64,000 nt of DNA from Acidobacteriota bacterium (lineage in GTDB: Bacteria > Acidobacteriota > UBA6911 > RPQK01 > JAJDTT01). Position numbers and translations under genes: made by a program. Numbering within the stretch: position 1 is the first letter of the stretch; every line of letters begins with the position of its first letter. Below, piece after piece: positions 4,144 through 64,000 of this stretch. The notes beneath the pieces are model-generated. The model was given only the letters and a program-made list of their open reading frames with translations. It was not told the DNA's origin and did not search any database. The stretch covers positions 2,432,001-2,496,000 of the forward strand of contig OZ253580.1 of NCBI GenBank assembly GCA_965263035.1, given 5' to 3'.

Positions 4144-4219
4144 TGGTGGAGGTAATCGGATTCGAACCGACGACCCCCTGCTTGCAAAGCAGGTGCTCTT
4201 CCAACTGAGCTATACCCCC
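4144..4219 (-). tRNA. tRNA-Ala(TGC)
   Basis: GGGGGTATAGCTCAG...TTGCAA...GGTTCGAATCC...TACCTCCACCA cloverleaf, 76 nt. Confidence 0.97.
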
Positions 4220-4402: not shown

Positions 4403-5044
4403 GTCGCGGTAGGGACGCCGGTTGCCCAGCGCCCCCCGCGCAGATCCGTGCGTGCCCGTTAAGGCACACGGCTCCTACCTCAGGTAATGACGGCAGGTCG
4501 CGACGCCCGCCGTATCCGACCCCCGCCTGTGTCACGGTAGCCCGGCTCTGAGTCCGGTCCGTACTTTGGTGAGCCGAATTCCCCTTGGTTCCACCCCTTC
4601 GCTCCACCGACTCCGCAGAGAGTTCCCCCTCCTTGTTCGCCCGCTTCATCACTACTATGGGTGAATCCGATTGCTTCCTCTCTCCCCTCATGGGTTACGG
4701 CTTTCCCCTTTCCCACAAGGCCCCGGCTTTCGCCGGGGAGAGAGTAAGCCCTCCCAGGTCCCGACACCAGATGTACGTACGTGCATGGGTTCTTTGACAC
4801 CGCAGAGCCCGGCTGCCCCTCACCCTGGCGGTCCAGCCGGTGTTGCCTTCGACCGCGACTACAGCCTCGGCACTTCCGATCAGGGAGCTTTCGATGCTCA
4901 ATAGCCTGCCCATACGCACCGCTACCGACGCTTCGCCGACACCCTCACGGGTGCCCACGCACGGCTCGCGGAGAAACGTGGATGGTTAGTCCTTCGTTTC
5001 AGCGGACTTTCACCGCCTATCTTGTGCCAGTTAGCCTGGCGCAC
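4403..5044 (-). mobile_element. ORF-less group II intron, family A (IIB-like), copy A1, inserted in a REP
   Basis: 5' GUGCG; D5 GAGCCGUGUGCCUUAACGGGCACGCACGGAUCU (AGC triad); D6 ending ...CCGCGAC; 642 nt with no RT ORF; flanks rejoin to GGGCGACGGGAA|AGCCGCCGCTCC. Confidence 0.9.
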
Positions 5045-15240: not shown

Positions 15241-15870
15241 GTGCGCCCGACATGGGCTGTATCTAAGGGATGAAAGATCCCAAGGGAGGTGATGGGACCA
15301 ACCCTAGCCGAACCGCAAGGCGTAGCCGCGAGGTGAAGCTGAAGGAAGCGGAAGGCAAACCCACGACCGCAGGAACACGAACCGGCAGCGAGGCCGGGTG
15401 CGGGCGGTGAGCTGGCGAGCAACAGCGAAACCCGAACCCCATCCAGACGTACCAGGTAGAGCCGGGCGGCCCGGGGGGAAAGATGCAGCACCTTACTCGG
15501 GGAGATCTCAAGGGTGAGAGCCTTTGAGAAGTCAGCAGAGGTCATAGTAGCGAAGAAGCCGGATAATGCCGGTGGAGCGAAGGACCGAAGGAGTCGGACG
15601 GGCCCTATGGTGGACTCGTCAGCGGGATCGCAACTACCTCCGGAAACGGGGCGGGGGGAGGCCCCTCGGACCCGGCACGGAAGGCCCAAGGGTGGAACCC
15701 GTCAAGCCGGAAGGGCGGAGATCAAGTCCCAGCGGCGGCGAAAACCGGAAAGAAAGGCCCTTTACGAGGCTCGAAAGAGCCTCGAGTGACTCCAACCGCC
15801 GGATACTGAAAACGGTACGTCCGGTGGTGTGGGAGGGTGCAGGGGCGCAATCCCCTGCACTCGACCCGAT
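15241..15870 (+). mobile_element. ORF-less group IIC intron, family B, copy B1
   Basis: 5' GUGCGCCCGACAUGGG; IIC-like D1-D3 (UGAAGGAAGCGGAAGGCAAAC, AAGUCAGCAGAGGUCAUAGUA); short D5 AACCGCCGGAUACUGAAAACGGUACGUCCGGUGGUG (CGC triad); 3' end CCCGAU; 630 nt, no RT. Confidence 0.92.
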
Positions 15871-23915: not shown

Positions 23916-24545
23916 ATCGGGTCGAGTGCAGGGGATTGCGCCCCTGCACCCTCCCACACCACCGGACGTACCGTTTTCAGTATCCGGCGGTTGGAGTCAC
24001 TCGAGGCTCTTTCGAGCCTCGTAAAGGGCCTTTCTTTCCGGTTTTCGCCGCCGCTGGGACTTGATCTCCGCCCTTCCGGCTTGACGGGTTCCACCCTTGG
24101 GCCTTCCGTGCCGGGTCCGAGGGGCCTCCCCCCGCCCCGTTTCCGGAGGTAGTTGCGATCCCGCTGACGAGTCCACCATAGGGCCCGTCCGACTCCTTCG
24201 GTCCTTCGCTCCACCGGCATTATCCGGCTTCTTCGCTACTATGACCTCTGCTGACTTCTCAAAGGCTCTCACCCTTGAGATCTCCCCGAGTAAGGTGCTG
24301 CATCTTTCCCCCCGGGCCGCCCGGCTCTACCTGGTACGTCTGGATGGGGTTCGGGTTTCGCTGTTGCTCGCCAGCTCACCGCCCGCACCCGGCCTCGCTG
24401 CCGGTTCGTGTTCCTGCGGTCGTGGGTTTGCCTTCCGCTTCCTTCAGCTTCACCTCGCGGCTACGCCTTGCGGTTCGGCTAGGGTTGGTCCCATCACCTC
24501 CCTTGGGATCTTTCATCCCTTAGATACAGCCCATGTCGGGCGCAC
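23916..24545 (-). mobile_element. ORF-less group IIC intron, family B, copy B2
   Basis: Reverse complement appears identical to B1 (630 nt); 5' exon ends GGCGACAAGAAAGTCGCCGCTC. Confidence 0.92.
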
Positions 24546-24678
24546 GAGCGGCGACTTTCTTGTCGCCGACCAGGGGGGCAGGGGGGACGGAGTCCCCACT
24601 TTACACTTTCCGGCCTCTACACTTCCCGCCCACTGAATCGCCTAACAACACAAAAGAGCAGGCGGCAAGAAAGCCGCC
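24546..24678. repeat. Composite REP module between intron B2 and IS110-A
   Basis: REP unit, GGGGACGGAGTCCCC hairpin, linker and a REP unit interrupted by IS110-A. Confidence 0.85.
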
Positions 24679-24699
24679 TGTACCCTTCTCAAGTAGTCT

Positions 24700-24880
24700 T
24701 TAGGGAACTTCACCCATGGTGGGTGAAGAGGGCCAACCGGCCGGGAGCTACCATAAAGCCGCAGCGCTCTCAGAGCACCTGGAGGGGACTCGTGCCCCGG
24801 CCGGTAGCCGCGATGGAGAACCTGTGGGAAGTCAGTGTCCAAGAACACCAGTACAGGAACCGATCCGAATCGCGGCGGCC
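24700..24880 (+). ncRNA. Predicted bridge RNA of IS110-A (ends approximate)
   Basis: AAAGCCGC (24755-62) = left target; CTGGAGGGG (24779-87) = reverse complement of right target; GTGGGAAGTC (24824-33) = left donor; GTACAGG (24851-57) = reverse complement of right donor. Confidence 0.85.
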
Positions 24881-24911
24881 CGACGTCCATTTAATCACTA
24901 GGAGGTTCGGG

Positions 24912-26159
24912 ATGAAACCAAGTCAATGGTTTGTGGGGGTCGATTGGGCGTCCCAGGCGCACCAAGTCTGCGTCGTGGATGAGCGAGGCACCTGTCAGGG
25001 ACAGCGCAGCTTCCCGCACAGCGGTTCGGGCCTGGCCCAGATGGCCGACTGGATCCTGCAGCAGACGGGGACGAGAGCGGAGGCCGTCTCGGTGGCGATT
25101 GAAGTGCCGCACGGTCCGGTGGTGGAGTTTTTGATGGGGCGATGCTTTGTCGTGTATGCCATCAATCCGAAGCAGCTGGATCGATTCCGCGACCGCTTCT
25201 CGCCGGCAGGCGCCAAGGATGACCGCCGCGATGCCCGAGTGCTGGCCGACGCGATCCGAACCGACGGCCATCGCTGGCAACGGCTGGAACCGGTCGATTC
25301 TGAAATGATCCAGCTGCGCGAGTTCTCAAGACTGGGTGCGCAGTTGACCCGCGATCGGACCCGGCTTCTCAACCGCCTGCGCCAACAACTCTGGCGCTAC
25401 TATCCGCAGTTCCTACACCTGAGCAAGGATCTCGCCGAGCCCTGGGTGATGGAAGTGTGGAAGCTGGCCCCGACACCGGATGCGGCCCGGAAGCTGCGCC
25501 CGAGCCGGGTCGCCAAGGTGTTGAAAAAGCATCGGATCCGGCGTATCGACGCCCCAGAGGTCCTGCGTCGCTTGCGGGTACGCTCCCTCCCGGTCGCCCC
25601 GGGCACCACCCAGGCGGTGAGGGTCCACATCGAAAGTCTCGGTGAGCGCCTGGCCGTGGTGCGGAACCAACTCCGGGACATCTCTCGTGAGCTCGACCGT
25701 TTGATCCGGGCTTGGGAGAAGCGGTGCGAGTCGACGCCGGGGCCCCAAGGACCGTGCCGGGACGTGGCGATCCTCGCCTCCCTGCCCGGCGTCGGCCGAA
25801 TCGTCCTGGCCACCCTGCTCTCGGAAGCCTTCGATGCGATCCGGCGCCGAGATTACGCCGCTTTGCGATGTCTGTGCGGGGTGGCCCCCGTGACCCGGAG
25901 TTCCGGCAAATACACCCGTGTCGTGCGCCGCCAAGCCGTTCATCCTCGTCTGCGGGAAGCGGCCTATCATTGGTCGCGCGTGGCCACGCAACACGACCCC
26001 ATCAGCCGAGCCAAGTACGCTGCCCTGCGGGAGCGCGGCCACGGCCATGCCCGGGCCCTGCGGTCCGTTGCCGATCGCCTGCTGGCGGTGGCCTGCGCCA
26101 TGTTGCGAGACCAGACGGAATACGATGCGAATCATGCAAGACAGCGCCGGGCTGCTTGA
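24912..26159 (+). CDS. IS110-family transposase/recombinase (DEDD)
   Basis: VGVDWA, AIE, KDDRRDA, SLPGVG and GVAPVTRSSG motifs; GGAGG RBS. Confidence 0.93.
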   Translation: MKPSQWFVGVDWASQAHQVCVVDERGTCQGQRSFPHSGSGLAQMADWILQQTGTRAEAVSVAIEVPHGPVVEFLMGRCFVVYAINPKQLDRFRDRFSPAGAKDDRRDARVLADAIRTDGHRWQRLEPVDSEMIQLREFSRLGAQLTRDRTRLLNRLRQQLWRYYPQFLHLSKDLAEPWVMEVWKLAPTPDAARKLRPSRVAKVLKKHRIRRIDAPEVLRRLRVRSLPVAPGTTQAVRVHIESLGERLAVVRNQLRDISRELDRLIRAWEKRCESTPGPQGPCRDVAILASLPGVGRIVLATLLSEAFDAIRRRDYAALRCLCGVAPVTRSSGKYTRVVRRQAVHPRLREAAYHWSRVATQHDPISRAKYAALRERGHGHARALRSVADRLLAVACAMLRDQTEYDANHARQRRAA

Positions 26160-26405
26160 TCCGGATCTGGACCGAGGGACGTTGTAGGCTCCACCCCGGC
26201 GCGGTCGCACCAGAAGCTCAAGAGCGACATCCATCCGGGCGACCATGGACTGGACCCGGGGATCGCTTCAGGAGGTCAATGGGAACCACCGTGCCAGAGA
26301 GGACCCCCAGGGGGAGGCCCGGCGAAGGAAGCGTAGCGACCGCAACGGGGCCTCCCCCTGGGGGTCAAATCCCGCTTGACAAAGGGTGGGAAGTCCCCTC
26401 CAGCG

Positions 26406-38496: not shown

Positions 38497-38574
38497 TGGC
38501 AGGCCAGGAGGGAATCGAACCCCCAACATCCGGTTTTGGAGACCGGCGCTCTACCAACTTTGAGCTACTGGCCT
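38497..38574 (-). tRNA. tRNA-Trp(CCA)
   Basis: AGGCCAGTAGCTCAA...CTCCAAA...GGTTCGATTCC...CTGGCCTGCCA. Confidence 0.96.
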
Positions 38575-38586
38575 ATTGAATATCAT

Positions 38587-38736
38587 TTATCGCGCCTCGC
38601 GGTGTGCCACGTGGCGACGACACCAACTGCAATATTTTCTCAGCTCGAGCCGCACGCGCTGAGTCTTCCTGTTCTTGGTCGTACTATAGTTCTTCCTGTG
38701 GCAAGCGGTGCATCGGAGGGTGATGATATCGCGCAT
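38587..38736 (-). CDS. rpmG: 50S ribosomal protein L33 (zinc-binding type; absent from the ORF track)
   Basis: Manual translation MRDIITLRCTACHRKNYSTTKNRKTQRVRLELRKYCSWCRRHVAHREAR. Confidence 0.95.
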   Translation of the reverse strand: MRDIITLRCTACHRKNYSTTKNRKTQRVRLELRKYCSWCRRHVAHREAR

Positions 38737-38740
38737 CGGC

Positions 38741-39928
<1,188 letters not shown>

Positions 39929-39967
39929 GATGGAACTCCTGAATCAGCCTTGCCTGGTCAGTTGGAA

Positions 39968-40039
<72 letters not shown>

Positions 40040-40079
40040 ACATACCCGTCTCCCCGGTTTCTGTCCACGTGGCCACTGT

Positions 40080-40155
40080 TGGAGCGGGAGACGGGACTCG
40101 AACCCGCGACCGATAGCTTGGAAGGCTATTACTCTACCAACTGAGTTACTCCCGC
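40080..40155 (-). tRNA. tRNA-Gly(TCC)
   Basis: GCGGGAGTAACTCAG...CTTCCAA...CTCCCGCTCCA. Confidence 0.96.
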
Positions 40156-40218
40156 CCTCGACCGTATGCGAAAAATCGAGTCCGTTCTCTCTAGATCCCG
40201 GAAGGGCGGCTTCTGGTC

Positions 40219-40303
40219 TGGAGGGGGCAGGATTCGAACCTGCGTAGCCCCGAAGGGCGACGGGTTTACAGCCCGTTGCCTTTATCCACTCGACCACCCC
40301 TCC
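40219..40303 (-). tRNA. tRNA-Tyr(GTA)
   Basis: GGAGGGG...CTGTAAA...long variable arm...CCCCTCCA. Confidence 0.95.
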
Positions 40304-40512
40304 TCATTGCATTCGGGGAATTCCTGATCCCCATCCGCCCCGTGGTGTCGCTCCTGCCAGTGCACCCCACCTTCCTGCAAAGCAGTCCCATTGCCAGGGA
40401 GGATACGGGAAGTGCCAAATTATACGCACTTCGGGGACCATATTCAAACTGAAAAATGGACGAACTGAGGCCGCCATTCCCGGCACCCGAGGGTAACCTT
40501 GCTGCGAGGGCG

Positions 40513-40584
40513 AGCTGGCGAAGGGAATCGAACCCCCAACCTACTGATTACAAATCAGTTGCTCTACCCTTGAGCTACGCCAGC
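40513..40584 (-). tRNA. tRNA-Thr(TGT)
   Basis: GCTGGCGTAGCTCAA...TTTGTAA...CGCCAGCT; no encoded CCA. Confidence 0.94.
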
Positions 40585-49004: not shown

Positions 49005-50000
49005 ATGATTGAACTTCGGCACGATAGGTTGACTTTCAGCTTTCCGGAGGTCCATGAGGAGGCGGGGTGCTCGATTTCGTTTTCGAGGACCCTGCGCATT
49101 CCGGACGACGACCTTGAGTATCCCCTGCCCCCGGGCATGGGGGAGTTTCCGTTGCACCATGTGGATGACTATGGCGGCCGCCTGCCGAAGCTCTGGAGCG
49201 ATCACGGCGGCGTCTTCATGCCCATGTACCAGGCGGAGGCGCTCTGGATTTCCTTCGATGGCGCGTACCCCATGGCCGTCAAGGTGGCCGCCGGGAAGGT
49301 CGACGCCGTTACGGGACAACCTTTTGGGAATGGGCTGAACCGGCGGCCTCAGGACTACGTCGTGATCCCGGACCAGCCCTGGCTCGACGGCTTCTGCGTG
49401 CGGAAGGGCCTGATCCGTCAGTTCGTCGCCATGCCCCTCGGGCAGGGCTATACGGCCGAGGAGCAGTTGACCGGCGCCGCGGAGCACGGCGGCCTGCAGA
49501 TCGTCGTCTATCCGATGAAGGCGTCGCGGTACGAGAGACTGAGGGCCGCGCGGCGCGAACCCTACGAAGCTGGTGTCGTCTGTTGTCACATGGCGGATCC
49601 CTGCCAAATGAGTCTGGCGCCCGGCGGGATGATGCGCCAGGAGGTCTATTCCGACGACTACGGATTCTCCGCCTGGGAGCGGGACGTCCGCTCGCGATGC
49701 TTCGTCCACCTGCTCAACAGCGGGCAATACCGCACGGTGACCGGATTCGCGCCGCCGTATGAGCCGCCCACCGCCGCCGACTACACCGAGGCCGGGCTCC
49801 CCTGGTTCGAGTATTTCGACGCCGACCTCGAGGCGCTGGAGGGGGCGACTCGGCTTGACCGCCTCGACAGCGTGGGGGCCCGCAGAGTGAAGGAGAGGAC
49901 ACCGCCGCTGGACGGGGGCGAGAACGTGGAACCCACACCGGCACAGATCAAGCGGCTGCGCAAAAGCCAAGTGGTCCGGGACGGAAGCGCCGCCTGGTAG
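49005..50000 (+). CDS. Conserved hypothetical protein
   Basis: GGAGG RBS; conserved-looking blocks RTLRIPDD, PMYQAEALWI, QPWLDG and QFVAMPLG. Confidence 0.8.
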   Translation: MIELRHDRLTFSFPEVHEEAGCSISFSRTLRIPDDDLEYPLPPGMGEFPLHHVDDYGGRLPKLWSDHGGVFMPMYQAEALWISFDGAYPMAVKVAAGKVDAVTGQPFGNGLNRRPQDYVVIPDQPWLDGFCVRKGLIRQFVAMPLGQGYTAEEQLTGAAEHGGLQIVVYPMKASRYERLRAARREPYEAGVVCCHMADPCQMSLAPGGMMRQEVYSDDYGFSAWERDVRSRCFVHLLNSGQYRTVTGFAPPYEPPTAADYTEAGLPWFEYFDADLEALEGATRLDRLDSVGARRVKERTPPLDGGENVEPTPAQIKRLRKSQVVRDGSAAW

Positions 50001-50158
50001 GAGCGGCGGTTTTCTTGCCGCCGATTGGGGGGGGTAGGGGGGACGATTAGTCCCCCCTCCTCTTCGTCTTCTTCCTTCTCAATCCGGAGTGGGCGACAAG
50101 AAAGTCGCCCCTCCCAGCGGGCGGCAAGAAAGCCGCCCGTCCTAGCGGGCGACAAGAA
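49998..50158. repeat. Composite REP module, type 2, with extra units
   Basis: Starts within the TAG stop; the last unit GGGCGACAAGAA is split by intron A2. Confidence 0.85.
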
Positions 50159-50801
50159 GTCGCGGTAGGGACACCGGTTGCCCAGCGCCCCCCGCGCAGA
50201 TCCGTGCGTGCCCGTTAAGGCACACGGCTCCTACCTCAGGTAGTGACGGCAGGTCGCGACGCCCGCCGTATCCGACCCCCGCCTGTGTCACGGTCATCCG
50301 GCTCTGGGTCCGGTCCGTACTTTGGTGAGCCGAATTCCCCTTGGCTCCATCCCTTCGCTCCACGGACTCCGCAGAAAGTTCCCCCTCTTTGTTCGCCCGC
50401 TTCATCACTACTATGGATGTATCCGATTGCTTGCTCTTTCCCCTCATGGGTTACGGCTTTCTCCTTTCCCACGAGGCCCCGGCTCTCGCCGGGGAGAGAC
50501 CAAGCCCTCCCAGGTCCCGACACCAGATGTACGTACGTGCATGGGTTCTTTGACACCGCGGAGCCCGGCCGTCCCTCACCTTGGCGGTCCAGCCGGTGTT
50601 GCCTTCGACCGCGACTACAGCCTCGGCACTTCCGATCAAGGAGCTTTCGATGCTCAATAGCCTGCCCATACGCACCGCTACCGACGCTTCGCCGACGCCC
50701 TCACGGACGCCCACGCACGGCTCGCGGAGAAACGTGGATGGTTAGTCCTTTCGTTTCAGCGGACTTTCACCGCCTATCTTGTGCCAGTTAGCCTGGCGCA
50801 C
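50159..50801 (-). mobile_element. ORF-less group II intron, family A, copy A2
   Basis: Close paralog of A1; flanks rejoin to GGGCGACAAGAA|AGTTGCCCCTCC. Confidence 0.9.
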
Positions 50802-50812
50802 AGTTGCCCCTC

Positions 50813-51487
50813 CTATTCCTTCTCGAAAAGGAGAAACTCCCTTTCTCTCAATCCGGCTCTCCTTGGATTCTCGCGGATATATTCCAGGCACTTCAAAAAG
50901 TGCAGAGGGTGCCGGATCAACCGATCCCAATAGTCTTTCTGCCAGATCTTGGCGTATTTTCCGGTCTTCTGGTTGATCACATGAGCCGTAAATCCCTTCC
51001 AGGATCTGACGATGTCTCTGAGATGATGAGAGCCAAGAGGGCGAAACAGCACATGGACATGGTTGGGCATCACGACGAAGGCGGCCAGTTCGTAACGCCG
51101 GCCGTCGAAATGCCGCAGTGAGTCAGCCACGACTCGGGCCAAGGCCGGATCCTTCAGGAGGCAGAACCCGTTCCCTTGATCCAGCCAGTCCTCGATTCGT
51201 CGAGAGAATTGATTGACGTAGCGTTTCGCCGTCCGCGCATCCCAGGGTCTTGGATGGTGTTTCAACCAGAATCTTCGTTCTTCCCGCCACTGATCCAGTT
51301 TGGCGTGTGGAAGCGAATCTCCCAGCCGCCAAGTCACGAAGACGAAGTGTTCACGCTTGTGCCAATGGGGCAGGCGGTTGTACCAAACGTCAATGGTTCC
51401 AGACTGATCAAAAGAGGAGCCGAAGCTTTCCAGCCACCAATTCTTCGAATCGCATGCCACAAATTTCCTAACGATCCCCTCACCCAA
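50813..51487 (-). CDS. REP-associated tyrosine transposase (RAYT, IS200-like Y1 HUH)
   Basis: LPHW...FVTWRL N-terminus, VVMPNHVH (HUH), SWKGFTA, IWQKDYWDRLIR and YIRENP; REP arrays on both sides; start uncertain. Confidence 0.88.
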   Translation of the reverse strand: MGEGIVRKFVACDSKNWWLESFGSSFDQSGTIDVWYNRLPHWHKREHFVFVTWRLGDSLPHAKLDQWREERRFWLKHHPRPWDARTAKRYVNQFSRRIEDWLDQGNGFCLLKDPALARVVADSLRHFDGRRYELAAFVVMPNHVHVLFRPLGSHHLRDIVRSWKGFTAHVINQKTGKYAKIWQKDYWDRLIRHPLHFLKCLEYIRENPRRAGLREREFLLFEKE

Positions 51488-51927
51488 TCGACGATAGATT
51501 GGGAGTATCCATGTTGCAAGTGGTGGGTGCTAATCGGTGTTTCCATCCCGTGTCGTTAGTACGTGATCTGTCCGGTCCAAAGGGCACAGGGTTAGGAGGA
51601 GCGTTCTTCCGCCGGAGGTGAGGCGGAGATCGAGCTGGATCCAGCGGGCGCCGTGCAGGGGGCGATGAGTGGACCGATAACTGGATCGAGGGACCTGAGA
51701 TCGTCGACGTCAGTCCTCCGGGAGGTCCGGATACGCCCTGGGGAGCGTCGGGTCAAGCCTCCGGCTCCTCCGCTTCGCTGCGGCCCTTCGGGTGACCCGG
51801 CGCTCCCCAGGGCGTGAAGAGCTTTCATGGCCGTAAGCAAGCTTCCGGCCAGACTTGACCGGAAGTTCGACAGACGGCCATCAGGGGGTCCACACGCTCC
51901 CTTTCCTCACGGGGTCTCTCCGTGGCC

Positions 51928-52875
51928 TCAGAAGGTCGCTCGGGGCGCTACGGGCAACCAGGTGCGGTCCTGCCGGACGAGGGTGTTGGCCAGGACGATA
52001 AGCTTGCGCATGACGGCGACGAGGGCCACCTTGCCGGGCTTGCCGCGCTCGCTCAGCCTCCGGTACACCTCGGCCAAGTCGGGGTTCCAGCGCAGGGCGG
52101 CCACCGCCGGCATGTACAGGAGCCGTCGCGCCCGCGCCCGTCCGCCCCGGATGAAGGCCCGGCCCTGCCAAGCCCCCGACTCGCGCGGAACGGCGGCCAG
52201 CCCGGCCAGACTGGCGGCGGCCTTGCCGCTGAGGGCGCCCAGCTCGGGCATCTCGGCCAGCAGACCGGCGGCGGTGGTGGCCGCGATCCCGGGAATGGAG
52301 GTGAGGATCTCCAACTTGCGGGCCCGCGCCTCGTCGGCCGCAATCAGCGTCTGCAATTTGCGGTCGATGGCGCGCAGGTGGCGCTCGAACATGTTGATCT
52401 GGATCTGGTTCTGCTGTTTGAGCAGGGGTTCGCGGAGCTGTCGGCGGCGGTTGAGCGCGGCCGTGCGCTGGCGCATCAGCGCGTCCCGGGACGTCTGCAG
52501 ATCCTGGAGCCGGCGTTGCGTTTTGGACGGCACCTGGGTCCGGCGCGGCTCCAGCGTGGCGGCCAGCTGGGCCAGTTTCCGAGCGTCTACGGCGTCGGTC
52601 TTGGCGCGGCTCCCGGTCGCCTCGGCGAAGCGCCGCGCCTGCCAGGGGTTCACCTTCGCCAGCGGCAGCTTCGCTTTGGACAGCGCTTCCTCGAGGTCCC
52701 GGTGGTAGGGACCGGTGGCCTCGTACGCGATGCACTCGACCGGAGTTCCGATCCAATCAATCAGCGCCCGGAAGCCGGCCGGGTCATTGTCGAACTGGGC
52801 GGAATGGCCGTCGGCCAGCCGGTGCGCGTCCAGGTGCGCTTTCGAGATGTCGATGCCTACGGTATGCTGTTTCAT
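51928..52875 (-). CDS. IS110-family transposase/recombinase
   Basis: VGIDISK, YEATG, AKTDAVDA, SIPGI and PRESG motifs. Confidence 0.94.
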   Translation of the reverse strand: MKQHTVGIDISKAHLDAHRLADGHSAQFDNDPAGFRALIDWIGTPVECIAYEATGPYHRDLEEALSKAKLPLAKVNPWQARRFAEATGSRAKTDAVDARKLAQLAATLEPRRTQVPSKTQRRLQDLQTSRDALMRQRTAALNRRRQLREPLLKQQNQIQINMFERHLRAIDRKLQTLIAADEARARKLEILTSIPGIAATTAAGLLAEMPELGALSGKAAASLAGLAAVPRESGAWQGRAFIRGGRARARRLLYMPAVAALRWNPDLAEVYRRLSERGKPGKVALVAVMRKLIVLANTLVRQDRTWLPVAPRATF

Positions 52876-52879
52876 CTTT

Positions 52880-53040
52880 CCTGTCTCCTGTGCTTGTCAT
52901 TCGGGCCTTGATGCCCTCGTATCCATTCAGGACATCGGGAAAGACGGTGGCCGACCTCACTCCCATACGGTTCGTAACAGTCCGCGGCGGTACGGTCCAG
53001 CCACCGCCGTCCGGGTCGCTCATGAGCGACCCGGACGGCC
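52880..53040 (-). ncRNA. Predicted bridge RNA of IS110-B (ends approximate)
   Basis: 5' hairpin; guides ACCGCCGC (52984-91) and UGGGAG (52960-65) match the target; AUGGAUAC (52919-26) and GACAAG (52893-98) match the donor. Confidence 0.85.
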
Positions 53041-53055
53041 CCATTTAAACAGACA

Positions 53056-53175
53056 AGCGGCGGTTTTCTTGCCGCCGATTCGGGGGGTAGGGGGGACGAT
53101 TAGTCCCCCCCTCCTCTTCGTCTTCTTCCTTCTCGATCCGGAGTGGGCGACAAGAAAGTCGCCCCTCCCAGCGGG
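53056..53175. repeat. Composite REP module, type 2
   Basis: Nearly the same as 50001-50120. Confidence 0.85.
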
Positions 53176-53237
53176 CGGATTCTGTCCACCCCGTCCATTG
53201 GCCGGGTCGGGGTGAGTGGTGATCTGGCTCGGACATC

Positions 53238-53273
53238 TTGACATCACATAGGGGAGTCATCATGATGACTCCC
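53238..53273 (+). promoter_or_regulatory. vapBC promoter with perfect 22-bp palindromic operator
   Basis: TTGACA-N17-CATGAT; GGGAGTCATCATGATGACTCCC (53252-53273) abuts the ATG. Confidence 0.75.
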
Positions 53274-53534
53274 ATGCGGACGACGTTAACTATCGAACCG
53301 GATGTCGCCCAGGTCCTACGGCGAGAGATTCGGCGTTCCGACCGGAGTATGAAAGCCGTGGTGAACGATGCCTTGCGAATCGGTCTCGGGGCGCAGGGCA
53401 AAGCCCCGCGGACGTCTCGATACGAGGTGAATCCCCATGCCTTCGGCTTCAAGCCGGGTATTGACATCTATCGGCTCAATCAACTGGTCGACGAGTTGGA
53501 AGCGGAGGAACTGGGTCGAAATAGTCAACTGTGA
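53274..53534 (+). CDS. vapB: Antitoxin (VapB-like, RHH)
   Basis: MRTTLTIEPDV...VVNDALR; overlaps the PIN gene (GTGA). Confidence 0.8.
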   Translation: MRTTLTIEPDVAQVLRREIRRSDRSMKAVVNDALRIGLGAQGKAPRTSRYEVNPHAFGFKPGIDIYRLNQLVDELEAEELGRNSQL

Positions 53535-53959
53535 TCATTCCCGACGTCAACCTGCTGCTGCACGCCCACAATTCGGACTTTCCGCGACACCGGGAAGCGC
53601 GAGAATGGTGGGAATCCCTGATGAATGGGACCGTCAGCGTCGGACTCCCGTGGGCGTCTATCCTTGGTTTTATCCGCATCGCCACTCAACCGAGAATCCT
53701 CGAGAATCCCCTCGACGTGAGGGGCGCCCGCACTCGCGTCCGGTCTTGGCTCGATCGACCGCAGACAGTGATCATCCATCCGGGAAATCGCCATTCGGAT
53801 ATTCTATTCGATCTCCTCGAGGGGTCTGGTGGCGGCGGCAATTTGACGACCGATGCCCATCTCGCTGCCTTGGCAATCGAGCACCAAGCGGAACTCCACT
53901 CGAACGATGCCGACATGGCTCGATTTCCGGGTCTGCGATGGGTGAACCCACTCGCCTGA
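53531..53959 (+). CDS. vapC: PIN-domain toxin
   Basis: IPDVNLLL, GNLTTDAHLAALAIEH, SNDAD and WVNPL. Confidence 0.9.
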   Translation: MIIPDVNLLLHAHNSDFPRHREAREWWESLMNGTVSVGLPWASILGFIRIATQPRILENPLDVRGARTRVRSWLDRPQTVIIHPGNRHSDILFDLLEGSGGGGNLTTDAHLAALAIEHQAELHSNDADMARFPGLRWVNPLA

Positions 53960-53980
53960 CGTAACCGCCCGATCTGCCTG

Positions 53981-54086
53981 GCGCGGCGGTGTTCCAATCG
54001 CCGGACTCCCGTTGGCGTATTGGAAAGAAAGAATGGGGGACAGAAATGTCTGCACGCCCATGGGAGACAAGAATGTCCCCCCTCCC
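53981..54086. repeat. Degenerate REP units
   Basis: GCGGCGGTGTTCCAATCGCC, GGACAGAAATGTC and GGAGACAAGAATGTCCCCCCTCC. Confidence 0.55.
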
Positions 54087-54140
54087 GGGGGTGAACTATA
54101 ATGGGCCGGGACCCTGCCGGGGGCAGGATCCGCCGGGATC

Positions 54141-54926
54141 ATGTTGAGTTCGCTTCTTCGCCACAGGCACCTGATTCGTGAACTGGTGTCCCGGGACATC
54201 CGGAGCCGCTACGTGGGCTCCGTCGCCGGCCTGTTCTGGTCCATTCTGAATCCGGCTCTGCAACTGGCGCTCTACACGCTGGTCTTCTCACTCTTCCTGG
54301 GGCATCGGTTCGGCAGCGAGGGCTCCACCGGAGTCTTCGCGCTGAATCTCTTCGCCGCCCTGCTCCCCTGGATGGCCATTCAGGAAGGCGTCGTCCGCTC
54401 GGCCCGGACCTTCATCGAGAACGCCAACATCATCAAGAAGCAGCGATTCCCGCTGGAGGCGCTTCCCTTCAGCGTCCTGATCTCGGCCGTCGTGCACCAG
54501 TTGCTGGGGACGGCCGTCTTCCTGGTGGTGCTGGCGGTCACCCAACTGACCGACTTCCGGTTCCTGGTCCTGATCTTCCCCCTCTTCGCGATCCAGATCC
54601 TCATGACCTACGGGCTGGCCGCCATGGCTGCCTCCCTGAATGTCTTCTTCCGCGACGTGGCCCAGCTCCTGGGCGTTCTCTTCATGCTCTTCTTCTGGGT
54701 CACCCCCATCGTCTACCCCCGGAGCCGAGCCCCGGAACCCTACCAGTTCCTCCTCTTCCTGAACCCTCTGACCCACCTGGTGGAGGCCTACCGGTTCGCC
54801 TTCCTGGGAGCGCCGGAACCCTCTCCATGGGGGCTGCTCTACTGGGCAGCCGTGTCCGTCGGATTCTATCGACTGGGGCGTTACGTCCTGGACCGGACCC
54901 GGAACCAGTTGGTGGACCTGTTGTGA
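54141..54926 (+). CDS. wzm: ABC-2 polysaccharide export permease
   Basis: RYVGSVAGLFWSILNP, VFFRD, TPIVYP and LNPL. Confidence 0.88.
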   Translation: MLSSLLRHRHLIRELVSRDIRSRYVGSVAGLFWSILNPALQLALYTLVFSLFLGHRFGSEGSTGVFALNLFAALLPWMAIQEGVVRSARTFIENANIIKKQRFPLEALPFSVLISAVVHQLLGTAVFLVVLAVTQLTDFRFLVLIFPLFAIQILMTYGLAAMAASLNVFFRDVAQLLGVLFMLFFWVTPIVYPRSRAPEPYQFLLFLNPLTHLVEAYRFAFLGAPEPSPWGLLYWAAVSVGFYRLGRYVLDRTRNQLVDLL

Positions 54927-56949: not shown

Positions 56950-57581
56950 ATCGGGTCGAGTACAGGGGATTGCGCCCCCGCACCCTCCCACACCACCGGA
57001 CGTACCGTTTTCAGTATCCGGCGGTTGGAGTCACCCGAGGCTCTTTCGAGCCTCGTACAGGGCCTTTCTTTCCGGTTTCCGCCGCCGCTGAGACTTGATC
57101 TCCGCCCTTCCGGCTTGCCGGCCTCCACCCGTGGGCCTTCCATGCCGGGTCCGAGGAGGGTTCCCCTCGCCCCGCTGTCGGAGGTGGTTGCGATCCCGCT
57201 GACGAGTCCACCATAGGGCCAGTCCGACTCCTTCGGTCCTTCGCTCCACCGGCATTACCCGGCTTCTTCGCTACTACGACCTCTGCTGACTTCTCAAGGG
57301 CTCTCACCCTTGAGATCTCCCCGAGTAAGGTGCTGCATCTTTCCCCCCGGGCCGCCCGGCTCTACCTGATGCGTCTGGATGGGGTTCGGGTTTCGCTGTT
57401 GCTCGCCAGCTCACCGCCCGCACCCGGCCTCACTGCCGGTTCGTGTTCCTGCGATCGTGGGTTTGCCTTCCGCTTCCTTCAGCTTCGCCTCGCGGCTTCG
57501 CCTTGCGGTTCGGCTAGGGTTGATCCCATCACCTCCCTTGGGATCTTTCATCCCTTAGATACAGCCCATGTCCGGGCGTAC
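56950..57581 (-). mobile_element. ORF-less group IIC intron, family B, copy B3 (diverged)
   Basis: Paralog of B1/B2; 5' end GUACGCCCGGACAUGGG; 5' exon ends AAGAAAGTCGCCGCTC. Confidence 0.88.
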
Positions 57582-62577: not shown

Positions 62578-62772
62578 CTGATCTCCGTTGAAGTCCCGAA
62601 TGGGGCGCCTCCGGATCCCGGCGAACAGGAACAGCCTACGTTTTGCGATGAATCCGGTCTATACGAAGCATTCTTCCGTTGGCCGGCGGCGATTGTCAAC
62701 GTTCAATACATATAACGACGGCCGCGAAGAATAGATGATCGATCCTTGAAAAACGTGTCCATCAAACTCGAG

Positions 62773-64000
62773 AGTATCCATGTTGCAAGTGGTGGGTGCT
62801 AATCGGTGTTTCCATCCCGTGTCGTTAGTACGTGATCTGGCCGGTCCAAAGGGCACAGGGTTAGGAGGAGCGTTCTTCCGCCGGAGGTGAGGCGGAGATC
62901 GAGCTGGATCCAGCGGGCGCCGTGCAGGGGGCGATGAGTGGACGGATCAACTGGATCGAGGGACCTGAGATCGTCGACGTCAGTCCTCCGGGAGGTCCGG
63001 ATACGCCCTGAAGAGCTTTCATGGCCGTAAGCAAGCTTCCGGCCAGACCTGACCGGAAGTTCGACAGACGGCCATCAGGGGGTCCACACGCTCCCTTTCC
63101 TCACGGGGTCTCTCCGTGGCCTCAGAAGGTCGCTCGGGGCGCTACGGGCAACCAGGTGCGGTCCTGCCGGACGAGGGTGTTGGCCAGGACGATGAGCTTG
63201 CGCATGACGGCGACGAGGGCCACCTTGCCGGGCTTGCCGCGCTCGCTCAGCCTCCGGTACACCTCGGCCAAGTCGGGGTTCCAGCGCAGGGCGGCCACCG
63301 CCGGCATGTACAGGAGCCGTCGCCCCCGCGCCCGTCCGCTCCGGATGAAGGCCCGGCCCTGCCAAGCCCCCGACTCGCGCGGAACGGCCGCCAGCCCGGC
63401 CAGACTGGCGGCGGCCTTGCCGCTGAGGGCGCCCAGCTCGGGCATCTCGGCCAGCAGACCGGCGGCGGTGGTGGCCGCGATCCCGGGAATGGAGGTGAGG
63501 ATCTCCAGCTTGCGGGCCCGCGCCTCGTCGGCCGCAATCAGCTGCTGCATTTTGCGGTCGATGGCGCGCAGGTGGCGCTCGAACACGTTGATCTGGGTCT
63601 GGTTCTGCTGTTTGAGCAAGGGTTCGCGGAGCTGTTGGCGGCGGTTGAGCAGGGCCGTGCGCTGGCGGATCAGCGCGTCCCGGGCCGTCTGCAGTTCCTG
63701 GAGCCGGCGTTGCGTTTTGGACGGGGCCGGGGTCCGGCGCGGATCCAGGCTGGCGGCCATCTGGGCCAGTTTCCGAGCGTCTACGGCGTCGATCTTGGCA
63801 CGGCTCCCGGTCGCCCGGGCGAAACACCGGGCCTGCCAGGGGTTCACCTTGGCCAACGGCAGCTTCGCTTTGGACAGCGCTTCCTCGAGGTCCCGGTGGT
63901 AGGGGCCGGTGGCCTCGTACGCGACGCACTCGTCCGGAGTTCCGATCCAATCGATCAGCGCCCGGAAGCCGGCCGGGTCATTGTCGAACTGGGCGGAATG
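62773..64000 (-). mobile_element. IS110-family element B, copy 2 (left end outside the window)
   Basis: Right end AGTATCCATGTTGCAAG... matches 51504 onward. Confidence 0.9.
63122..64000 (-). CDS. IS110-family transposase (5' part outside the window)
   Basis: Close paralog of 51928-52875; AKIDAVDA, SIPGI and PRESG. Confidence 0.9.
   Translation of the reverse strand, partial: HSAQFDNDPAGFRALIDWIGTPDECVAYEATGPYHRDLEEALSKAKLPLAKVNPWQARCFARATGSRAKIDAVDARKLAQMAASLDPRRTPAPSKTQRRLQELQTARDALIRQRTALLNRRQQLREPLLKQQNQTQINVFERHLRAIDRKMQQLIAADEARARKLEILTSIPGIAATTAAGLLAEMPELGALSGKAAASLAGLAAVPRESGAWQGRAFIRSGRARGRRLLYMPAVAALRWNPDLAEVYRRLSERGKPGKVALVAVMRKLIVLANTLVRQDRTWLPVAPRATF

Follow-up and report, generated by a model that had tools for sequence, protein, structure and literature searches.

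The subject of this work is a 1,554-bp element, here called IS110-B, in a 64,000-nucleotide stretch of an Acidobacteriota bacterium genome (assembly GCA_965263035.1, contig OZ253580.1, positions 2,432,001 to 2,496,000; hereafter the window). IS110-B is very probably an insertion sequence (IS) of the IS110 family that moves by bridge-RNA-guided recombination. Its preferred target is the 3′ arm and the first spacer bases of a hairpin resembling repetitive extragenic palindromic (REP) sequences, CGGCGG-loop-CCGCCG-CT-CC. An initial annotation had proposed such an element, and the target, donor, hairpin, stem, guides, GACAAG and 315-aa open reading frame (ORF) that it described are all present where it placed them. 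Its call of a bridge recombinase is borne out by the Pfam domains, by full-length similarity to IS621 and ISCro4, by a covarying two-loop leader and by guides that track both the flanks and the ends of the element.

The element and its immediate surroundings are organised as follows:

51504..53057, minus strand: IS110-B, 1,554 bp including a CT core at each end, with boundaries taken from 13 left and 13 right genomic ends
53058..53077, minus strand: REP hairpin directly 5′ of IS110-B (5′ arm CGGCGG 53072-53077, loop, 3′ arm CCGCCG 53058-53063)
53058-53064, minus strand: left target half ACCGCCG, within the REP hairpin
53056..53057, minus strand: CT core of the left junction
51504..51505, minus strand: CT core of the right junction
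51497..51503, minus strand: right target half CCCAATC; CTCCCAUA, the reverse complement of the right target guide, matches CT+CCCA
51928..52875, minus strand: recombinase gene, 948 nt, 315 aa, identified by Pfam matches and with invariant D9, E52, D94, D97 and S233
51737..51812, minus strand: palindromic insert of 76 bp within the long right end, found in 9 of 12 complete copies and missing from the other three

On the minus strand the left junction reads ...CGGCGGCAAGAAAACCGCCG-CT-TGTCTGTTTAAATGG..., with AAAACCGCCG-CT-TGTCTG as the nearest bases (left target 53058-53064, core 53056-53057). The right junction reads ...CACTTGCAACATGGATA-CT-CCCAATC..., the element ending in CATGGATA-CT (core 51504-51505, right target 51497-51503). 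In all 12 complete copies of the genome the two-base CT is the sole sequence common to both junctions, no scan aimed at terminal inverted repeats having been made, and the element therefore extends from 51504 to 53057. The interval first proposed, 51497-53070, contained the element and took in 7 nt of flank at the right end and 13 nt at the left end. Contigs from public sequencing runs end at 51501-51503 and at 53056, in agreement with the revised boundaries. The right end is 424 nt long. Sequences related to its 76-bp palindromic insert occur at other positions in the genome; the short form lacking it is also found in public-run contigs, and the joint 51736->51813 appears in two RNA-library runs.

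The 315-aa protein matches PF01548 (DEDD_Tnp_IS110, 81 bits, 8.9e-23) and PF02371 (Transposase_20, 68 bits, 9.4e-19). It thereby combines a DEDD (RuvC-like) domain with a Tnp domain carrying a conserved serine, the arrangement that characterises the IS110 family. Among solved structures in the PDB, ISCro4 (9t56) and IS621 are matched over residues 3-299, at 1.4e-35 and 2.5e-32 respectively. D9, E52, D94, D97 and S233 are invariant across 20 aligned homologues and would be the catalytic residues.

The left end is long and non-coding, with a 5′ stem-loop followed by two modules built around internal loops, a layout typical of IS110 elements. The 167 nt that separate TTAAAT from the start codon have a folding energy of -85.8 kcal/mol, against -61.9 +/- 4.0 for shuffled sequences (z = -5.97), none of 200 shuffles being as low. 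From 5′ to 3′, a hairpin with a 15-bp stem precedes the target module with its inner hairpin, and then comes the donor module. The parts are listed here with their left target guide (LTG), right target guide (RTG), left donor guide (LDG) and right donor guide (RDG):

53006..53040, minus strand: 5′ stem-loop of the leader RNA, 15-bp stem, from the RNA fold
52945..53006, minus strand: predicted target-binding module, from the fold, the consensus structure and covariation with the flanks
53000-53006 and 52945-52951, minus strand: outer stem CGGUGGC/GCCACCG of the target module, from the fold
52984-52991, minus strand: LTG ACCGCCGC, in the target module and followed by its inner hairpin
52960-52967, minus strand: RTG UAUGGGAG, in the target module, 3′ of the inner hairpin
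52876..52944, minus strand: predicted donor-binding module, whose 3′ strand overlaps the ribosome-binding region
52919-52926, minus strand: LDG AUGGAUAC, in the donor module and followed by its inner hairpin
52893-52898, minus strand: RDG GACAAG, in the donor module

Together ACCGCCGC and UAUGGGAG match the target ACCGCCG-CT-CCCA, the LTG being same-sense with the left target half and the first core base and the RTG being the reverse complement of CT+CCCA, while AUGGAUAC and GACAAG match the element's own ends. These correspondences hold well beyond a single locus. A scan of a genome collection returned 80 related loci with 51-92% protein identity, mostly labelled as Acidobacteriota, Vicinamibacterales, Longimicrobiales and proteobacterial assemblies. 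Parsing succeeded for 74 of these loci and yielded 47 distinct target loops; in the other six (L004, L025, L027, L030, L043, L073) the donor anchor or the closing stem was not recognised by the patterns used. The RNAalifold consensus of 49 leaders (alignment A2, the window leader plus 48 distinct relatives; L004, L027 and L028 were left out of 51 unique segments) reproduces the two-module layout with 26 pairs, and compensatory changes are seen at 15 of these. Target guides pair and covary with both target halves, in this genome as among the relatives. For the left flank, the mean longest exact match with the loop is 6.59 nt over 37 loops, compared with 4.03 +/- 0.19 after permutation (maximum 4.68 in 1000 permutations); for the right, the RTG matches 3.93 of 6 non-core bases over 42 loops, compared with 1.78 +/- 0.18. 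Donor guides behave in the same way towards the ends of their own element: the LDG is identical to the right end at 67 of 72 loci and exists in two states (AUGG in 54, ACGG in 13), and at 65 of 66 loci the RDG is identical to the left end, here in three states. Three rows scored as differing in the donor comparison (ATGGCTAC) are probably wrong right-end calls.

The same rule is visible inside one genome. BLAST and end-signature searches of the single 6.198-Mb contig found 13 left and 13 right ends, corresponding to 12 complete copies, one copy without a right end and one solo right end, at 96-100% identity; the full 314-315-aa ORF is kept in 10 of the complete copies. Left junctions are ACCGCCG-CT (9), GCCGCCG-CT (1) and ACCGACG-CT (3), and right junctions CT-CCC (7), CT-CCT (5) and CT-CTC (1). 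The initial annotation had named beforehand the lack of a genome-wide ACCGCCGCTCCCA-like consensus as grounds for giving up its reading; such a consensus is present, as (A/G)CCGCCG-CT at 10 of 13 left junctions and CT-CC at 12 of 13 right junctions, so that this objection falls. Among the 13 copies, three or four versions of the target loop occur. When each LTG is compared with its own left junction, all seven positions match in 12 of 13 copies and six of seven in the remaining one. The ten copies with ACCGCCGC lie at ACCGCCG-CT, one of them at GCCGCCG-CT, and all three with ACCGACGC at ACCGACG-CT. The right guide of these three is GUUUGGGAG (reverse complement CTCCCAAAC), which fits CT-CCC.AA; in this sub-lineage each target guide is changed at a single base, C to A in the left one. 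In addition, a copy with RTG ..AAAAGGAG at CT-CCTCTTC matches at 6 of 7 non-core positions. A second IS110-B copy in the window, at about 62772-64000 (minus strand) and cut by the window end, is of the short form with RTG ..AAAAGCAG; its flanks are AAAACCGCCG-CT on the left and CT-CTCGAGT on the right.

The ACCGACGC copies, at genome positions 1125869, 3696978 and 654685, outside the window (listed with locus L082), target another insertion sequence and not the REP. Each is inserted in the 5′ untranslated region of this other IS, in the orientation of its DDE transposase gene and some 45 nt before the start codon. The host transposase has DUF772, DDE_Tnp_1 and DDE_Tnp_1_6 domains. Uninterrupted sites exist in this DDE-IS, two with ACCGACG-CT and four with ACCGAAG-CT. 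The solo right end, at genome position 4205150, lies in the same context. The move of the ACCGACGC sub-lineage into the DDE-IS possibly amounts to one insertion sequence interfering with another.

The main target repeat has the consensus ..TC GGCG[AG]C AAGAAA G[TC]CGCC GCTCC.. and is found 228 times by strict and 399 times by looser matching, frequently in arrays. Uninterrupted ACCGCCGCTCC sites number 91, where about 12 are expected from base composition. It is a short GC-rich palindrome with more than 100 copies, occurs in arrays and is linked to a RAYT/Y1 transposase (RAYT, REP-associated tyrosine transposase); the name REP is supported by a Y1_Tnp (RAYT-like) gene, one of just two in the genome, that adjoins this IS110-B copy. 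That gene, at 50813-51487 on the minus strand, directly borders the right end of the element. The other Y1_Tnp gene (genome 3478135-3478365) lies between hairpins of the GGGGACA...TGTCCCC type. As an abundant repeat, the REP offers IS110-B a multi-copy landing site, presumably harmless to the host.

Other mobile DNA uses this repeat as well. Pfam-model searches identified a second IS110 group, IS110-A, with four genomic copies, one of which lies in the window:

24677..26396, plus strand: IS110-A, the comparison element, with a CC core at both ends
24755-24762, plus strand: LTG AAAGCCGC, for the target AAAGCCG-CC-CCTCC
24781-24787, plus strand: RTG GGAGGGG, for the same target
24826-24833, plus strand: LDG GGGAAGUC, for the element's own ends
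24851-24857, plus strand: RDG GUACAGG, for the element's own ends
24912-26159, plus strand: ORF of 415 aa, from the Pfam-model search

The two elements carry different guides, and their proteins share 25-30% identity in local segments (E 6e-6), as the initial annotation's description of a second, divergent element implied. IS110-A matches IS621 weakly (8.8e-8), in the C-terminal part. A tblastn search of the genome with the B protein at E 1e-3 returned B copies and no A. These pairwise and PDB sequence comparisons place A and B as deeply divergent. An earlier parse from empty sites, with A inserted at TGT|CC|CAATG, was dropped: AAAGCCGC and GGAGGGG fit AAAGCCG-CC-CCTCC, and the parse is also undone by covariation with a second target. 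Two A copies, 85% identical to the window copy, carry AAUGUCCC and sit at AATGTC-CC in another hairpin repeat, GGGGACAAGAATGTCCCC.

The REP 3′ arm ends in the A core CC (AAAGCCG-CC-CCTCC), and the B core CT starts 3 bp beyond it (ACCGCCG-CT-CC). The proposal that both target the same REP at adjacent positions therefore stands for the positions, CC and CT, and needs amending in that A and B fit different sub-variants, A the spacer CCTCC and B the arm ACCGCC with GCTCC, so that no single site fits both, and in that three of 13 B copies are elsewhere. Similarly, insertion in opposite directions holds for the two window copies only: measured against the repeat, the two elements lie in the same orientation, with the hairpin 5′ of the left end, and genome-wide both are found on both strands.

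The REP is shared with a third type of element. A group II intron family of 24 copies has its 5′ end (GTGCGCC...) always directly after a hairpin + GCTC, and this hairpin has the GGCG[AG]C-loop-G[TC]CGCC form in 19 of the 24. Copies in the window are:

24201-24545, minus strand: group II intron, 5′ end after hairpin + GCTC
15322-15585, plus strand: group II intron, 5′ end after hairpin + GCTC
57236-57499, minus strand: group II intron, 5′ end after hairpin + GCTC

The intron starts 2 bp beyond the IS110-B core on the same repeat, and the positions used on the REP are GCCG-CC for IS110-A, CCGCCG-CT for IS110-B and the base right after GCCGCTC for the intron. According to the available text of PMC1702495, IIC introns tend to lie downstream of inverted repeats; the placement found here fits this habit. 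The repeat of about 280 bp to the left of IS110-A consists of the 5′ part of this group II intron plus REP sequence. A second group II intron family (Rfam group-II-D1D4-6) is found at 50159-50801 and at 4788-5010, both on the minus strand; its copy near 50.8 kb begins about 11 nt past the stop codon of the RAYT-like gene, measures about 640 nt from the 5′ end to the domain V/VI match and may be without an ORF. Elsewhere in the window, Rfam models mark a cluster of five tRNAs at 38500-40584 and one tRNA at 4147-4219, all on the minus strand. We give about even chances to the combined proposal that three unrelated RNA-guided elements crowd within 6 bp of one REP and that reprogramming of the IS110-B bridge RNA has been caught in progress.

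How A and B came to share the REP can be read in more than one way. It looks as if REP specificity was gained separately in each lineage, because relatives of B target many unrelated sequences and the nearest B outgroup, L001 (92%), carries ACCGCCGC. To this extent the initial annotation's independent convergence holds, its example being one of a kind already documented, since two IS110 elements sharing a REP have been described. Alternatively, REP-like hairpins could be the preferred target of the whole family, each lineage simply tracking the commonest repeat of its host. That IS110 elements target REPs has long been known, ISPpu9 and ISPpu10 share one insertion position in the REP (PMC1525189, in the part available), and IS110-A itself comes in two guide variants, each matched to a different hairpin repeat. 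This explanation, which we hold possible though somewhat unlikely, refines convergence more than it opposes it, and the diversity of targets among B relatives places the gain of specificity for this REP within each lineage.

A different view would leave the RNA out of target choice altogether, the REP hairpin being recognised by protein-DNA contacts alone and the leader serving as a translation-regulating 5′ untranslated region with incidental target matches. Two features speak for it. The 3′ strand of the donor module overlaps the ribosome-binding region, so that the leader could also regulate translation, and the left target half forms one arm, the 3′ one, of a GC-rich stem-loop, a structure that for ISPpu10 is presented as an extra specificity determinant in the accessible part of bioRxiv 10.64898/2026.03.19.712850. 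Yet guide and flank change together within one genome, ACCGCCGC with ACCGCCG and ACCGACGC with ACCGACG, and over the 47 distinct loops of the relatives they do so far above permuted controls; moreover, recombinases about 94% identical insert at different sequences. We therefore regard it as very improbable. Less credible still is the idea that the REP halves are part of the element, either as its terminal repeats or as sequence it carries along, as more than 13 nt of similar left flank in several copies might suggest, for the flanks diverge past the repeat, 91 uninterrupted ACCGCCGCTCC sites exist, three copies lie in the different context of the DDE-IS 5′ untranslated region, where uninterrupted sites exist too, and public-run contigs break at the CT cores. 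With the REP as a split target, an empty allele of this exact locus would read ...ACCGCCGCTCCCAATC....

The pathway proposed for IS110-B is modelled on IS621 and its relatives, from which circle formation, promoter use, RNA binding and the chemistry of strand exchange are transposed here. Excision would join the right end to the left end through the CT core, forming a circle, and this joint would place TTGCAA 17 nt from TTAAAT and so make a promoter, from these two boxes:

51514..51519, minus strand: TTGCAA, candidate -35 box of the right end; joining of the ends brings it to 17 nt from TTAAAT
53043..53048, minus strand: TTAAAT, candidate -10 box in the left end, from the computed end joint

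The reconstituted promoter would transcribe the leader of about 170 nt. Its first internal loop would pair with the target via ACCGCCGC and UAUGGGAG and its second with the joined ends of the element via AUGGAUAC and GACAAG, after which the 315-aa DEDD/Ser recombinase would exchange strands at the CT core. The TTGCAA-N17-TTAAAT junction of the initial annotation is reproduced in the computed joint of the right and left ends, where TTG[AC][AC]A-17-T[AT]AA[AT]T is present in 12 of 12 complete copies. By sequence this corresponds to a sigma-70-type promoter, and TTGCAA-17-TTAAAT is thus a candidate promoter created by joining of the ends; a promoter rebuilt in this way is reported for IS110 circles in the available part of PMC11208160.

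Contigs from the public runs hold most of IS110-B, two of the runs being labelled sponge metagenome. X15 and X17 are RNA-library runs from a single study; over the leader bins (52908-53041) their summed contig word depth is 1280-2218 and 1353-1736, against 45-293 in most ORF bins. Depth in X18 is flat at about 11, and X1, whose library kind is unrecorded, has 600-981 over the leader against 264-1066. Depth over the leader is a weak hint of abundant leader RNA, as contig depth cannot rank the parts of a gene. Contig ends near 53035-53037 were considered as a transcription start and rejected: a run not recorded as RNA also ends there, and the copies differ at this place.

Several observations weigh against a bridge-RNA-guided, active IS110-B. 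In two of the 12 complete copies the ORF is affected by a premature stop or a changed start. The right half of the target is matched loosely: six complete copies with RTG UAUGGGAG are at CT-CCC (4) or CT-CCT (2), and two with RTG ..AAAAGCAG, at CT-CC and CT-CT, have the first non-core base mismatched. Right-half recognition seems to need just two or three bases past the core. At the core itself the LTG pairs with the first base only, the base after ACCGCCGC being G and not U, and the donor loop likewise, AUGGAUAC being followed by G; for IS621, pairing to both core bases is strongly preferred, according to the part of PMC11208160 available. The leader has no match to any family of Rfam 15 (E <= 1 over 50000-54500; gathering score over the whole window), and no curated model therefore stands behind the leader RNA. 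Finally, no right-end/left-end joint was found in the contigs of the four public runs (X1, X15, X17, X18), which says little about the circle since contigs drop rare forms. Set against the covariation of guides with flanks and ends, these points leave bridge-RNA-guided movement of IS110-B very probable.

IS110-B and IS621 share major features: the same two Pfam domains, similarity over the full length (E 2.5e-32) and a CT core. The available text of PMC11208160 also describes for IS621 a guide RNA from the left end, a target loop with a left guide in top-strand sense and a complementary right guide, a donor loop, a promoter rebuilt across the joined ends and a REP-derived natural target, all of which have their counterpart here. 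On the other hand, IS110-B is distant in sequence and resides in an Acidobacteriota host. Whereas that same text gives IS621 a nine-base LTG and a four-base RTG, the left guides of IS110-B pair over 7 nt plus the first core base only. The 424-nt right end, which in 9 of the 12 complete copies contains the 76-bp palindrome, also sets it apart. The best match among solved structures is ISCro4 (PDB 9t56, 1.4e-35 over residues 3-299), a likeness at the sequence level.

The closest parallel to the sharing of a REP comes from Pseudomonas putida KT2440, where ISPpu9 and ISPpu10, dissimilar IS110 elements, are inserted specifically into one and the same REP and each show a 2-bp direct repeat (PMC1525189, available part). 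Here too, two dissimilar members of the family share one REP in one genome, an arrangement that is therefore already published. Unlike ISPpu9 and ISPpu10, whose insertion point is identical in the same partial source, A and B have cores 3 bp apart and use different sub-variants. The left target half of IS110-B, the 3′ arm of a GC-rich stem-loop 5′ of the core, resembles the 'dual-match' target of ISPpu10 (bioRxiv 10.64898/2026.03.19.712850, accessible part), and the hairpin CGGCGG-loop-CCGCCG followed by CT is a candidate for an extra recognition feature.

IS110-B is a well-documented addition to the already known bridge-RNA class of IS110 elements, nothing being categorically new, and its clade may already stand in the supplementary tables of PMC11208160. 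What it offers is a compact natural data set on bridge-RNA rules within one genome, with strict pairing of the left half (7 of 7 positions in 12 of 13 copies), loose pairing of the right half and a one-base change of guide that goes along with a move to another landing site. Across genomes labelled Acidobacteriota, Gemmatimonadota and Proteobacteria, the clade combines a donor that stays conserved (AUGGAUA-CU-UGUC) with a small enzyme of 315 aa, a combination that may interest collectors of bridge recombinases. Most useful are the covariation of guide and target inside one genome and the three-way crowding on one REP, where two IS110 elements and a group II intron support the notion of REP hairpins as safe harbours for mobile DNA.

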